Shown here: positions 1,858 to 10,296 of the stretch, one piece after another
How the letters are laid out: the number at the start of each line of letters is the position of its first letter
How positions within the stretch are numbered: position 1 is the stretch's first letter
Assembly: GCA_035288565.1 (NCBI GenBank)
Contig: DATDZZ010000076.1
Location: 1 to 10,296 of the forward strand
Direction: 5' to 3'
Source: an archaeon
GTDB lineage: Archaea; Iainarchaeota; Iainarchaeia; Iainarchaeales; DATDZZ01
DNA: 10,296 bases
Position numbers and translations under genes: made by a program
The notes under the pieces: model-generated
Databases searched by the model: none
The model's input: only the letters and a program-made list of their open reading frames with translations
Told to the model about the DNA's origin: nothing

Positions 1858-3156
1858 TCAGGAGGGCTCGGAACTCCCGCACATCTAAGAGTTGAACCGG
1901 GTTTAATTCACAGAGTTAACGGCGGAGTTCTTTTCCTGGATGAAATTGCTACTCTTTCAATGAAGGCTCAGCAGGAACTTCTTACTGCAATGCAGGAAAA
2001 AAAATATGCAATTACCGGCCAGAGTGAAATGAGTTCAGGCGCTTTAACTAGAACTGAAGCAGTGCCATGCGATTTTGTTTTAGTGGCTGCAGGAAATTAT
2101 GAGGACTTGGAGAAAGTTCATCCGGCTTTAAGAAGCAGAATAAGAGGCTACGGATATGAAATTCATATGAATGCTGACATGGATGATTCAATTGAAAACA
2201 GGGAAAAAATTGTTCAGTTCATTGCACAGGAAGTTGTAAAGGACGGAAAGATTCCTCATTTCGGCAGGGAAGCAGCTGAATTAATTGTTTTCGAGGCAAG
2301 AAGAAGAGCTCAAAGAAAAAATAAGCTGACTTTAAAGCTGAGGGATTTAGGCGGGCTAATAAGAGCAAGCGGTGACATCGCAAAAGAAAAAAGCCATGCA
2401 ATTGTTGAGCCTCAGGATGTTTATGAAGCTAAAATGAATGCAAGGACTTTAGAGCAGCAAATGGTTGGAAAGATTATTGAAAATAAAAGAGACTATGATG
2501 TTTACTTGACTGAAGGTTCTGCTATTGGAAGAGTTAATGGCTTGGCTGTTTCAGGAGACGGGGACGCTGGAATGATTCTTCCGATTGAAGCAGAAATTGC
2601 GCCGGCAGCTTCTCAAAGCGAGGGAAAAATTATTGCAACAGGAAAGCTGGGAGAGATTGCAAAGGAAGCAGTTCAGAATGTTTCAGCTTTAATTAAAAAG
2701 CTTTCAGGCAAGGACATTTCAAAGCACGATCTTCACATTCAGTTTCTTCAGACTTATTCAGGAGTTGAAGGGGATTCCGCAAGCGTTTCAGTTGCAACAG
2801 CAGTAATTTCTGCGTTGGAAGGCATTCCAATAAAGCAGAGCCTTGCAATGACTGGCTCTTTAAGTGTGAGAGGAGAGGTTCTTCCTGTGGGTGGAGTGAC
2901 AAGCAAAGTTCAGGCAGCAATTAAAGCAGGCTTCAAGGAAGTAATTGTGCCTAAATCAAATTTAGAGGACATTATTCTTGAAAAAAATGAGTTAAGCAAA
3001 ATTAAAGTAATTCCTGCTTCTTCTTTAAGCGAAGTAATTGAAAACTCTTTTGTTAAAAGCGAAAAAAGAAACAGGCTTTTAAGGAGCTTAAAAAAATTCA
3101 TTAAAATAAGGGTTCCGAAAGTACTGGAAGCAGCAGGAAAAAAAACCCTGATTTAG
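1741..3156 (+). CDS. lonB: IntC plus the LonB protease C-terminal fragment (AAA+ Walker B through the Ser-Lys protease domain).
   Basis: After IntC: [34 protein letters not shown] (Walker B) ... [11 protein letters not shown] ... [13 protein letters not shown] ... [15 protein letters not shown] ... [29 protein letters not shown] (catalytic Ser/Lys region). It matches Thermococcales LonB closely along the whole length. Confidence 0.9.
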
Positions 3157-8188: not shown

Positions 8189-8938
8189 ATGGTTAAATTA
8201 ATTTTAGATGACGCCCAGGAATTCAAGAAAGCTGTTGACGCTGTCTCTGTTTTAATTGATGAAGCCGAATTCATTGTTGATGAAAAAAGATTCGCTTTAA
8301 AGGCAACTGATCCAAGCCAGATCTCAATGGTTGACTTTGAATTGGATAAAAAAGCCTTCAAAAGCTATGAAGTAAAAAAGCCGACAAAAATCGGATTAGA
8401 TTTAAGCTATTTAAGCCAGGTAATGGGCAGAAGCAAAGCAAAAGAATCTCTTACAATAGAATTGGATGAAAAAGACTCAAGATTAAATATTACTTTTGAA
8501 GGCAATGCCAAAAGAAAATTTTCAATTCCGTTGCTTGACTTAAGCTCAACAGAGCTTCCTAACCCGAAAATTAATTTTGATGCAGAAATTAAAATGAATG
8601 CAGGCCTTCTTCAGGATGCATTGAAAGACGCTTCACTGATTTCAAATCACTTGACTTTAGGGGTTACAAGCGATTCATTTTTTGTGAATGCAAGTTCAAG
8701 CAAAGGAGAACTAAACAATGTTTCTCAGAAAAATGATTCAGATTTAAAGAAGCTTGAAGTAAAAAACGAGTGCAGTGCAATGTATCCATTGGACTTCCTT
8801 TCAGACATGCTTAAAGCGGCTTCTTCTTCGGATGAAATAGATTTATTTCTTAAAACAGATGCTCCAATAAAAATTTCCTACAAAATAGGCAGGGCGCAGA
8901 TTATCTACTTTTTGGCTCCAAGAATAGAGACAAGCTGA
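8189..8938 (+). CDS. pcn: DNA polymerase sliding clamp PCNA (paralog 1).
   Basis: MVKLILDDAQEFKKAVDAVSVLIDEAEFIVDEKRFALKATDPSQISMVDFELDKKAFKSYEV... and the C-terminal ...IIYFLAPRIETS are colinear with archaeal PCNA (ATDPSxV, LAPR motifs). A GGTGA RBS lies 5 nt upstream of ATG 8189. The track ORF from 8090 is an N-terminal over-extension overlapping the peptidase gene. Confidence 0.9.
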   Translation: MVKLILDDAQEFKKAVDAVSVLIDEAEFIVDEKRFALKATDPSQISMVDFELDKKAFKSYEVKKPTKIGLDLSYLSQVMGRSKAKESLTIELDEKDSRLNITFEGNAKRKFSIPLLDLSSTELPNPKINFDAEIKMNAGLLQDALKDASLISNHLTLGVTSDSFFVNASSSKGELNNVSQKNDSDLKKLEVKNECSAMYPLDFLSDMLKAASSSDEIDLFLKTDAPIKISYKIGRAQIIYFLAPRIETS

Positions 8939-8982: not shown

Positions 8983-9183
8983 GCCAGGTATTGAGCTTCA
9001 GCGAAGATCGTGTGTTTTCGCCAACCTTTTCTTAAAAGGTTGCAGGATCGAGCGCAAGCGAAGATCGTGCTTCGGTTCACTCGCTCGAAAGCGAGTAAGT
9101 GGACGAGGAGGGAGCCGCAAGATAAACATCTTTGAGGCCTTACCACCCTGGCTCCCCTCTGAACCGTCATTTGAAACGGTCTG
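8983..9183. ncRNA. GC-rich, hairpin-dense island in an AT-rich genome. Possible structured ncRNA or repeat element of unknown class, strand undetermined.
   Basis: A sharp local GC rise. Perfect hairpins: CAACCTTTT-CTT-AAAAGGTTG (9021-9043), CGAAG-atcgtg-CTTCG, CTCGC-tcgaaa-GCGAG, a long-range GGGAGCC (9110-9116)/GGCTCCC (9149-9155) stem, and ACCGT-catttgaa-ACGGT. An internal 13-nt direct repeat AGCGAAGATCGTG occurs at 9000-9012 and 9057-9069. No tRNA T-loop/cloverleaf was detectable. Confidence 0.3.
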
Positions 9184-9237
9184 ATTAAATTATTGAATAA
9201 ATGTTTAAATTTGTTTCTTTTACGCATTTACGTCATA

Positions 9238-9267
9238 TTTCTTTTTTTTTAAAGGGTTTTTTTGCTT
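9238..9267 (+). terminator. Oligo-T terminator (TTTCTTTTTTTTTAAAGGGTTTTTTTG).
   Basis: T9 and T7 runs downstream of PCNA1 and the GC-rich island. Likely ends the + strand transcript(s). Confidence 0.5.
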
Positions 9268-9395
9268 TGATTAATGAAAAAAAAGAAAAATAGCCAGTGA
9301 GCTGGTTTTAGATTCAAGAATTTCAGATAACCGGATAAAGCCAGATTTCTTTGAATTAAAAGAATAAGTTAAAAAACTTCAAAGAAATTAATTTA

Positions 9396-10127
9396 ATGGG
9401 GATAAACTTGATTGAATTAAAGCGAGCAATGTTGTGGCAGAAAGTAATTGCATCAATTTCTTCTTTGATAAGTGAAGGAAATTTAAGGTTCTCAGATAAA
9501 GGGATTGGCTTCAAGGCAATTGATCCAAGCCAAATAGTTTTAGTTGATTTCTTTTTAGATAAAAAGAATTTCGAAAAATATGAAGTAGAGCCTTCTCTTA
9601 TCGGAGTGGATTTAGCTGAATTAAATAAAATAATGCAGAGAGCTTCAACTGAAGACAGGCTTTCAATGGAGTTAAGCGAAAGCGAGCTAAACTTGAATCT
9701 GGAAGGAGACCTTTCAAGGCACTTCAAACTTCCATTAATTGACTTAAATGAAGATGAAATTAAAATCCCTGAAGCAAGCTTTGAAGCAAAAATTGAAGTG
9801 AATGCAAGAAACCTGAAAGAAGCATTAAAGGACGCAGCCTTATTCGGCTCAAGCATTATATTAAAAGTTTCAAAAGGAAAATTAATGCTTGAAGCAAGAG
9901 GAAGCCAAGGACAGTTAAAAACAATTGTTAAAGGGGCAAAAGCATCTGTTGCAGGAAAAGACGAAATAGTTTCCAAGTATTCATTGAATTACTTAATCAA
10001 TATCTTGAAAGAAGCTGAAAACGAAAAAAAAGTTTTCCTTGAAATAAAATCTGATTCTCCAATAAAAGTTTCCTATAATTTAGGGGAAAGCACAATCCAG
10101 TTCCACCTTGCGCATATGATCATTTAA
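9396..10127 (+). CDS. Second, divergent PCNA sliding-clamp paralog.
   Basis: MGINLIELKRAMLWQKVIASISSLISEGNLRFSDKGIGFKAIDPSQIVLVDFFLDKKNFEKYEV... is colinear with PCNA1 over the full length (roughly 35-40% identity by eye). Shared blocks: IDPSQ, FxLPLIDL, LKDAxL. The C-terminus ...FHLAHMII replaces the usual LAPR/K motif. Confidence 0.85.
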   Translation: MGINLIELKRAMLWQKVIASISSLISEGNLRFSDKGIGFKAIDPSQIVLVDFFLDKKNFEKYEVEPSLIGVDLAELNKIMQRASTEDRLSMELSESELNLNLEGDLSRHFKLPLIDLNEDEIKIPEASFEAKIEVNARNLKEALKDAALFGSSIILKVSKGKLMLEARGSQGQLKTIVKGAKASVAGKDEIVSKYSLNYLINILKEAENEKKVFLEIKSDSPIKVSYNLGESTIQFHLAHMII

Positions 10128-10296
10128 GCCGCCGTCCAGCCGGCGAGTCTGGGTACACGTATTTCGCTTCGCTCAATACGTGGAGTGCATAGTGCCTAAC
10201 TCACGCAAAAGATTCCGCTCGCCGTCCCGTCCGCCGTCCAGCCGGCGCAACCTTTAATAAAGGTTGGCGAAAAGCACTGCATTAAGCAGTGCAAGC
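10128..10296. repeat. Second GC-rich hairpin-rich element, related to the 8983-9183 island. It runs to the window edge.
   Basis: Direct repeat CCGCCGTCCAGCCGGCG at 10129-10146 and 10232-10249. Hairpins CACGTATT-tcgcttcgctc-AATACGTG (10157-10183), CAACCTTT-aat-AAAGGTTG (10249-10267) followed by GGCGAAAAG, and GCACTGC-attaa-GCAGTGC. The CAACCTTT..AAAGGTTG+GGCGAAAA module and the GTATTGAGC..GCGAA module both recur in the first island in inverted orientation. Confidence 0.4.

Follow-up and report, generated by a model that had tools for sequence, protein, structure and literature searches.

Two GC-rich islands beside an archaeal PCNA2 gene consist of short stem-loop modules that probably belong to a dispersed family of palindromic repeats

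We describe two GC-rich islands that lie on either side of the second of two tandem PCNA genes in a 10,296-nt stretch of DNA (the window, which here means that whole stretch) from an archaeon of the Iainarchaeales, contig DATDZZ010000076.1. The window has a GC content of ∼35%, and Pfam annotation assigns its gene products as LonB, DUF373, a Band-7 protein, a SpoIIM-like protein, a Csl4-like protein, RpoL and the two PCNA paralogues. An earlier note on this DNA placed the islands at 8983-9183 and 10128-10296, took them to be the only strongly GC-rich stretches present, and suggested several origins for them, among them the ends of a mobile or invertible cassette carrying PCNA2. They are indeed the two longest GC-rich runs (9034-9186 and 10093-10282, at ≥54% GC in 50-nt windows), but they are not the sole GC-rich stretches, as coding sequence at 1-200 reaches 0.485 in 200-nt windows. 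The islands are separate clusters of short GC-rich stem-loop modules, each positioned between a stop codon and a downstream T-rich stretch, so that the modules probably lie in 3′ untranslated regions (UTRs); that they bracket PCNA2 is incidental, and the gene is not their cargo. The features of the locus are as follows.

8189-8938: PCNA1 gene, with PCNA_N and PCNA_C domains.
8983..9005, plus strand: A-type module, 5′ arm and core CCAGGTAT-TGA-GC-TTCA-GC-GAA; the reverse complement of this module type is found in island 2.
9006..9091, strand unspecified: allele-specific block of 86 nt (K half, H, K, UUCG mini-hairpin and the tip of hairpin B); alignments break at 9005/9092.
9015..9042, minus strand: H element of island 1, flank TTTTCGCC and hairpin CAACCTTTT-CTT-AAAAGGTTG; the minus strand reads hairpin, then GGCGAAAA.
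9042..9070, plus strand: K module, GCAGGATC-GA-GC(GCAA)GC-GAA-GATCGTGC.
9078..9101, plus strand: hairpin B, CACTCG-CTCGAAAG-CGAGTAAGTG.
9095..9160, plus strand: locus-specific conserved hairpin GTAAGTGGACGAGGAGGGAGCC...GGCTCCCCTCT, outside the repeat family.
9163..9180, plus strand: terminal hairpin ACCGTCATTTGAAACGGT, followed by AT-rich sequence.
9396-10127: PCNA2 gene, with PCNA_N and PCNA_C domains; stop codon at 10125-10127.
10128..10145, plus strand: 'start' hairpin module GCCGCCGTCCAGCCGGCG, directly 3′ of the PCNA2 stop codon; a second copy lies at 10231-10247.
10156..10182, plus strand: A′ module, CACGTA-TTTC-GC-TTC-GC-TCAA-TACGTG, of the type that is reverse-complementary to the A module in island 1.
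10248..10273, plus strand: H element of island 2, hairpin CAACCTTT-AAT-AAAGGTTG and flank GGCGAAAA, in the orientation seen in tRNA introns.
10274..10296, plus strand: hairpin GCACTGC-ATTAA-GCAGTGC, after which the rest of the hairpin string begins and is truncated where the window stops.

The islands share two modules, each of them present once per island and in opposite orientation, as had been proposed. The first, TTTTCGCCAACCTTT, is found at 9015-9029 on the plus strand and at 10259-10273 on the minus strand; the second, GTATTGAGC-N3/4-GCGAA, is found at 8988-9005 (plus) and 10163-10179 (minus). In both cases there are two matches, as against 0.00 expected from 200 shuffles. The internal direct repeats assigned to each island are also there: AGCGAAGATCGTG at 9000-9012 and 9057-9069 in island 1, and CCGCCGTCCAGCCGGCG at 10129-10145 and 10231-10247 in island 2. 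The hairpin described as perfect in both islands is present in both, although with unequal stems, of 9 bp in island 1 (9022-9042) and 8 bp in island 2 (10248-10266). Island 1 (8988-9012) and island 2 (10156-10179) can also be drawn as a long-range pairing of ∼18 bp in three segments, which simply reflects inverted copies of one module type and lends no support to a processing stem.

The recurrent modules are of at least five types: H, K, A/A′, UCUU-loop hairpins and the 'start' hairpin. The general form of H is CAACCTTTT-NNN-AAAAGGTTG-GCGAAAA, in which a 9-bp stem (C-AACCUUUU paired with AAAAGGUU-G) closes a 3-nt loop that is usually NRG; stem variants are rare and retain pairing (AGCC/GGCU), and a variable hairpin nearly always adjoins the H flank. 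The K copy at 9042-9070 has an 8-bp outer stem with a G.G mismatch, a GA/GAA internal loop and a GNRA-capped inner stem. These are traits of the family, in which the 8-bp outer stem often carries a G.G mismatch, the core TC-GA-G...C-GAA-GA is invariant and the inner stem is small and capped. Among 11 K variants, 94% of cells are paired and 7 of 12 pairs change on both sides, a result matched in none of 500 shuffles; hairpin structure is thus kept across repeat variants, although stem covariation within a repeat family is weaker evidence of selection than covariation between orthologues.

The A-type module closes as a hairpin, CAGGTAT...ATGCCTG, in a short allele of the island (contig L001), and in the window allele the 3′ half of K replaces its 3′ arm. 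A/A′ and K have a GAGC...GCGAA core in common, which explains why the hairpin at 8985-9012 is an A/K chimera and why AGCGAAGATCGTG is repeated. Since AGCGAAGATCGTG is the 3′ half of the K hairpin, the order in island 1 (K half, H, full K) amounts to 1.5 K-H units. Hairpin B has an 8-nt tip that varies by allele (GCAGCAGC in L001), with pairing kept in both. Island 1 folds more strongly on the plus strand (z = −2.9 vs −1.7 on the minus strand).

Island 2 is cut by the end of the window, and the search beyond position 10296 called for by the earlier note finds its continuation in contigs L005 and L008. There the complete island measures ∼340-355 nt and has a T-rich 3′ end, GGAATGCC-TTTTATTTTATTCC, after which comes the gene for the primase large subunit (priL). 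The full island of L008 folds more strongly than shuffled sequence on either strand (z = −7.8 plus, −6.4 minus), as is expected for strings of palindromes. Many contigs end within island 2.

Ten contigs from independent assemblies (L001-L010) encode an identical PCNA2 protein and were used for strain comparison. Outside the islands, alignments of the window with these contigs are 99.5-100% identical; the islands themselves differ by swaps of whole modules. In island 1, the 86-nt block at 9006-9091 is replaced in L001, L003, L007 and L008 by 30 nt that complete a simple A-type hairpin. Three versions of the first hairpin of island 2 occur, which differ by small deletions between GCCGTC repeats, and L002 and L006 carry in island 2 a different hairpin string without H. 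As a consequence, the window, L004 and L009 are alone in having H on both sides of PCNA2; the element is found in island 2 only in L001, L003 and L008, and in island 1 only in L002 and L006. Altogether six of the ten contigs lack H in one or other island: L001, L003, L007 and L008 in island 1, L002 and L006 in island 2. The position and orientation of PCNA2 are unchanged in all ten.

The order PCNA2, priL, priS, GINS, eIF2-alpha, PAC2 is kept in five related species; PCNA2 relatives at 53-66% identity carry the labels Candidatus Diapherotrites, Iainarchaeum or Micrarchaeota. In none of the five do the H, K and A modules of the window lie beside PCNA2: four have a short gap after the gene, including L176 and L179 with short AT-rich gaps and no islands, and in L172, the nearest relative (66% identity in PCNA2), a GC island of its own directly follows the PCNA2 stop codon and opens with the same type of start hairpin, TTCGCCGTTCAGCCGGCGAGGCTGA. 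L172 contains, besides, a dispersed repeat of its own, GCCGAGCAGCCGGCGAGGCTGAA, which occurs in either orientation. A family of islands built around CAGCCGGCGAGGCTGA(A) occurs in that contig at 1359-1528, 5415-5623 and 7698-7829, again in either orientation and free of H, K and A modules, which indicates that the habit of forming islands predates the particular modules.

Several further observations concern these neighbourhoods. In L177, a more distant relative, a 115-nt GC-rich insert (11831-11946) separates priL from priS, which overlap each other in L174; the insert holds an H variant, CAGCCTTTTGGGAAAAGGCCGGCGAAAAAA, and gene callers predict a 42-amino-acid open reading frame there. L001 runs from PCNA2 into the rpL3 operon (10733-11210), and L002 (8293-8660), L005, L008 and all relatives run into priL; the L001 join may be a chimera or a real rearrangement across a ∼230-nt identical repeat stretch. 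The tandem PCNA pair is present also in the relatives L172, L176, L178 and L179, and the two genes of the window retain stretches of 73-82% nucleotide identity (8576-8631 vs 9780-9835 and 8852-8889 vs 10047-10084).

The modules are not confined to PCNA2. In the same population they follow the stop codons of unrelated genes in either orientation. In L002, start and A′ modules follow the PAC2 stop codon (13300-13381), and a start module with an H+K stretch follows the stop codon of an MJ0538-like gene (15380 to the contig end); there the 57-nt H+K stretch (15426-15482) is 100% identical to island 1 and reversed. Another strain, L149, has a 118-nt block 99% identical to island 2 after the same MJ0538-like gene. 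H with its flank was found at 41 loci, each in its own contig, in one metagenome scan; the contigs come from several environments and range from 32 to 59% GC. Its contexts are tRNA spacers, tRNA introns, the rpL3 reading frame, sites beside direct repeats, and positions after stop codons. With respect to the upstream gene, H is in sense orientation at ∼24 loci and antisense at ∼9, a bias and not a rule. These results strongly support one option of the earlier note, a dispersed genomic repeat family. That note had also allowed for a common intrinsic-terminator-like hairpin found after many genes in no particular arrangement: occurrence after many genes, free of any fixed arrangement, is essentially what we find, but the terminator character is not, as a promoter/terminator scan gave no hairpin-plus-T-run site in the islands, whose T-rich stretches lie only at their ends. 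A search of viral contigs for the H element found none, and a scan of genome contigs with GTATTGAGCN{3,4}GCGAA, which with 14 specified bases is too short, returned only chance matches in unrelated bacteria.

Three loci outside the window illustrate how H accumulates. The spacer between tRNA-Ser(GGA) and tRNA-Leu(AAG) in L165 (3690-3905) is filled by tandem [H + K] units with a 57-nt period and four H copies, the last of which overlaps the annotated start of tRNA-Leu by 2 nt; the unit is the same as the K-H unit of island 1. In L132 (8830-8920), the rpL3 gene has an in-frame insert of 81 nt (27 amino acids), made up of two H elements and linkers (AVTEGGFSPTFSQKVEGEARFSPTFSQKV), which is absent from the L3 gene of L001. 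In L161 (∼1230-1320), an H copy is apparently split by a start module and a second H (CAACCTTTTAAGAAAAGGT, then CGCCGTTCAGCCGGCG, then CAACCTTTAATAAAGGTTGGCGAAAA), which suggests nested insertion or recombination between H copies.

At four independent loci H is bounded by direct repeats that end exactly at its first base: 10 nt in L133/L134, 10 nt in L166, 19 nt in L168 and 19 nt in L171. Control searches found nothing of 11 nt or more except one tandem array. In L171 (∼2980-3110), an 86-nt H-led element lies at the overlap of the rpoH stop codon and the rpoB start codon, and the 19-nt junction (GGAGGGTTGTAAAATGAAT, gene strand) is found on both sides of it; owing to this duplication both genes are intact. 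In L131 and L164 the 5′ end of a tRNA-Tyr gene is duplicated. The smallest unit bounded by repeats, in L133, is ∼29 nt long.

H is also the first module of inserts in tRNA genes. It leads inserts in the D-loop of tRNA-Gly(UCC) in L159, L163 and L136/L170, the insert at 37/38 of tRNA-Gly(CCC) in L137, an insert probably at 37/38 of tRNA-Gly(UCC) in L144, and two T-loop inserts in L152. Overall, H-led introns occupy positions 20/21, 37/38 and 59/60 of tRNA-Gly and tRNA-Ile genes, with H in all of them in the orientation hairpin, then GGCGAAAA; in L136, L137 and L151 an A′-type module (stem-TTTC...TCAA-stem) follows H within the intron. In this set (L152, L159, L163, L136/L170, L137 and L144), introns at D-loop 20/21 and T-loop 59/60 occur one or two per gene. 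ARAGORN called no tRNA at five H-containing tRNA loci, and in silico removal of the H-led insert gave a perfect cloverleaf at all five (tRNA-Gly(UCC) three times, tRNA-Gly(CCC) and tRNA-Ile(UAU)). The junctions of L136 and L159 can be drawn by hand as a relaxed bulge-helix-bulge (BHB) motif, in which the AUGG/CCAU helix has 4 bp, the bulges of 3 nt read CUA or CUC and AAA, and the 5′ arm of H forms the inner helix; both yield the same mature D-loop, AAUGGCUA. For H-led tRNA inserts of other contigs removal restores the RNA, as for BHB introns. The islands of the window lie outside any recognisable RNA gene or coding sequence, so that in this respect they do not qualify as BHB introns, and a tRNA/tmRNA search found none in the window or in L001-L010.

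The modules are shown to be dispersed and modular, to turn over between alleles, to reside in introns and, at some loci, to be flanked by direct repeats; we think it probable, though well short of certain, that they are a family of small, modular, non-autonomous GC-rich palindromic repeats, a form of selfish DNA, in an AT-rich DPANN archaeon and its relatives. How they insert, by which enzyme, and any benefit at the RNA level are inferred. The modules would spread by DNA insertion, sometimes duplicating 10-19 nt of target, and would then be reshuffled by slippage, ectopic recombination or gene conversion between copies, giving rise to mosaic, strain-specific islands. They would persist where a stable hairpin is harmless: within 3′ UTRs, in the spacers between tRNAs, inside tRNA genes from which they would be removed as endonuclease-spliced introns, and occasionally in frame in variable loops of proteins. 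Hairpins at the 3′ end of mRNAs may incidentally protect against 3′-to-5′ decay.

We put forward only tentatively, as a stronger proposition that we think rather unlikely to hold in full, that H-led modules are an active family of miniature mobile elements common to DPANN archaea, from which endonuclease-spliced tRNA introns also derive. Insertion into a tRNA gene would survive if the hairpin of the element, together with a short segment complementary to the target, created a splice-competent BHB.

Several findings weigh against a selfish repeat family. A mobilising enzyme was not identified in the Pfam annotation, which covered the window and its neighbours, no genome-wide enzyme search having been made. 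Direct repeats are found at only ∼5 of ∼35 distinct loci and vary in length, which is atypical for a single transposase, and the strain comparison gave no clean filled/empty pair of alleles with a simple insertion, since island alleles differ by replacements. H is conserved in distant hosts, its NRG loop preference is strand-specific, and K has an asymmetric GA/GAA core that does not vary, all of which suggests recognition by a conserved cellular factor, and the elements may have a function. The orientation bias of H points to some constraint at the RNA level or linked to transcription. Stem covariation in a repeat family can also come from templated palindrome formation. The module census is a partial one, covering PCNA2 contigs, relatives and the metagenome scan.

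The conservation of H, its loop preference and the invariant core of K sustain the best-surviving alternative, in which the modules work as RNA elements in 3′ UTRs and in the precursors of tRNAs, for instance as 3′-end stabilisers or as sites bound by a conserved RNA-binding protein, and are under selection, rarely duplicated and not mobile. The covarying K stems around an invariant internal loop would fit, as would the fact that hosts of 32-59% GC have kept H together with its GGCGAAAA flank and a purine-rich NRG loop, the bias of H towards the sense strand downstream of genes (with UCYU loops 7 sense to 1 antisense), the GNRA and UUCG loops of island 1 on its plus strand, the stronger-folding one, and a position that is always between stop codon and T-rich stretch. 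The same blocks nevertheless occur in both orientations, K(d) being sense after PCNA1 and antisense after the MJ0538-like gene; near-identical strains gain, lose and swap modules with their genes unchanged; the close relatives L176 and L179 have no islands; and insertions are found in a coding sequence and, with duplication of the target, where two genes meet. K, moreover, fails as a K-turn of the L7Ae-binding kind, because the register laid out by hand leaves the outer stem unpaired and the covarying pairs fit a plain helix with a 2x3 GA/GAA loop. The orientation of GNRA and UUCG tetraloops was tallied as a test between the RNA and DNA levels, and comprised 15 tetraloops, too few hairpins for this purpose. 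On balance we regard functional RNA elements as an unlikely, if serious, explanation.

Two further readings are less likely again. In the first, the modules behave as BHB introns throughout: the splicing endonuclease excises them from any RNA, the PCNA mRNAs included, and they spread as introns. H leads introns at three positions in tRNA-Gly and tRNA-Ile genes, L136 and L159 offer relaxed BHB motifs with the same mature D-loop, and intron transposition is known in Thermoproteales, by a mechanism given as unknown (PMC4090602). A strict hBHBh′ scan of the sense strand of both islands was empty, where 2.6-2.8 motifs were expected in shuffles, a weak test in that the scan also misses the relaxed tRNA motifs. 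Further, the insert in rpL3 can be read through in frame and the stop/start junction of L171 is duplicated, neither of which would be needed if the elements were spliced out, and both orientations to transcription occur. We consider splicing from any RNA improbable.

In the second, which we hold to be a comparably poor candidate, island 1, island 2 or both would be a gene for a discrete structured non-coding RNA, such as a divergent signal recognition particle (SRP) RNA, an RNase P RNA or a small RNA (sRNA), with repeat similarity a secondary matter. In its favour are the strong folding and the conservation of one part of island 1, the hairpin at 9095-9160. This hairpin has counterparts between PCNA1 and PCNA2 in L172 (376-445) and L178 (∼870-930), which makes three species with PCNA2 proteins 64-66% identical; 5′ GTAAGTRGACGAGG and 3′ CTCCCCTCT are invariant, and there is one compensatory pair, C-G to U-A. 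No copies were found at the other loci compared, and no Rfam match. Island 1 is therefore composite, with 9095-9160 separate from the repeat family; this hairpin could be a small RNA, or could serve the PCNA1 transcript as a 3′-end or regulatory element. All of the rest is strain-variable and assembled from modules of other loci, and the counterpart of island 2 is limited to its first hairpin. The option of a known RNA raised by the earlier note found no support in covariance-model searches of Rfam, which gave no family match: in the window and five longer loci there were 0 matches at the gathering threshold, and at E ≤ 10 only noise, of 13-22 bits against cut-offs of 49-90. No tRNA was found, and by eye island 1 lacks the defining boxes of a tRNA, 5S rRNA, SRP RNA, RNase P RNA, C/D sRNA or H/ACA sRNA.

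Much less probable still is that the variation and apparent dispersal are artefacts of metagenome assembly, with chimeric joins at low-complexity GC hairpins. This would account for the many contigs that end in islands and for the PCNA2-rpL3 join of L001, where L002, L005, L008 and all relatives have priL, and the ∼230-nt identical stretch common to L001 and L008 exceeds the assembler k-mer. The same alleles recur, however, in independent assemblies and pipelines (ENA samples, JGI, Logan), mosaic differences occur at a scale well under k = 141, and modules are also embedded in large contigs of good assembly, of 130-173 kb and 1.16 Mb, and in otherwise intact tRNA and protein genes.

Finally, the proposal that the islands are the inverted ends of a mobile or invertible PCNA2 cassette, or att-like recombination sites, is extremely unlikely in spite of the related modules that flank the gene in opposite orientation in the window, because H is absent from one or other island while PCNA2 stays identical and in place, the segment 9016-10272 is inverted or missing in none of the ten contigs, synteny of PCNA2 and priL holds in five relatives without H, K or A beside PCNA2, the modules also follow unrelated genes, and Pfam annotation of the window genes and of neighbouring genes in L001 and L002 shows no recombinase, integrase or invertase. 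For the cassette the result is deflationary.

Two classes of known repeat were also set aside. The islands are not a CRISPR array: H spacing is 42, 51 or 57 nt, the intervening hairpins are identical or near-identical, and each island of the window has one H. Nor are the modules miniature inverted-repeat transposable elements (MITEs), with which they share a small size, a lack of coding sequence, multiple copies, a structured form and, in part, target duplications. Terminal inverted repeats are lacking from the inserts in L133, L166, L168 and L171, whose duplications of 10, 10, 19 and 19 nt have no fixed length; a parent insertion sequence was not identified, and units go down to ∼29 nt.

By analogy, the modules most resemble repetitive extragenic palindromes and the bacterial interspersed mosaic elements that they form (REP/BIME), Rickettsia palindromic elements (RPEs) and the GC clusters of yeast mitochondria, the last being nearest in behaviour. 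REP/BIME sequences are imperfect GC-rich hairpins of 20-40 nt, found downstream of genes as mosaics in both orientations, and are plausible stabilisers of mRNA 3′ ends; REPs are tied to REP-associated tyrosine transposases (RAYTs) of the IS200/IS605 type, make no target duplication and are species-specific. The modules described here are likewise short, imperfect, GC-rich, multi-copy, extragenic palindromes in mosaic clusters, as far as a partial census can tell; they differ in their archaeal hosts, in that H is common to divergent hosts, and in the direct repeats that flank some copies, the 10-19-nt length of which argues against a mechanism of the IS200/IS605 type. RPEs are palindromic elements of ∼100-150 bp that insert in frame into protein genes as well as into intergenic DNA. 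The 27-residue insertion in the rpL3 gene of L132 is of this kind; it is the only coding insertion here and lies outside the window, and RPEs are longer and do not form GC islands in 3′ UTRs or sit within tRNA introns.

GC clusters of yeast mitochondria are mobile GC-rich palindromes in an AT-rich genome that undergo merger and shuffling and make target duplications (PMC4478555). Clusters such as GC42 are short, mostly intergenic, strain-variable, composite and occasionally found in genes (PMC4478555), and the islands, at ≥54% GC against a background of ∼35% and with block swaps and shared blocks, show the same behaviour, a functional likeness with no claim of homology. The yeast clusters are organellar and make duplications of AG or TAG; those described here are archaeal, have duplications of 10-19 nt, belong to other sequence families and also form tRNA introns of the endonuclease type; they are not known to be accompanied by an intron-encoded endonuclease or a reverse transcriptase. 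For the transposed tRNA introns of Thermoproteales, the account of Fujishima et al. (2010) given in PMC4090602 implies intron gain at the DNA level by an unknown mechanism. Unlike those introns, the module studied here is also found in 3′ UTRs, tRNA spacers and coding sequence, in some cases with direct repeats, and the window itself has no tRNA and no strict BHB motif. In our literature search we found no paper on REP-like repeats in DPANN archaea, and the H sequence was not found in full text.

If a selfish repeat family is the right explanation, ultrasmall DPANN genomes, usually deemed streamlined, carry fast-evolving, tiny GC-rich palindromic elements, which would dominate differences between strains, break metagenome assemblies and be able to mislead binning and synteny calls, as in L001 vs L002. 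A practical consequence is that H-led introns hide tRNA genes from standard finders, ARAGORN having missed five, so that standard tRNA counts for these archaea are too low. The occurrence of one element in 3′ UTRs, tRNA spacers, rpL3 and tRNA introns sometimes with target duplications, would link tRNA intron gain to a concrete DNA element, and if the more tentative proposition of active, intron-generating elements also held, the modules would supply the missing mechanism for the gain of archaeal tRNA introns that has been called 'intron transposition'.

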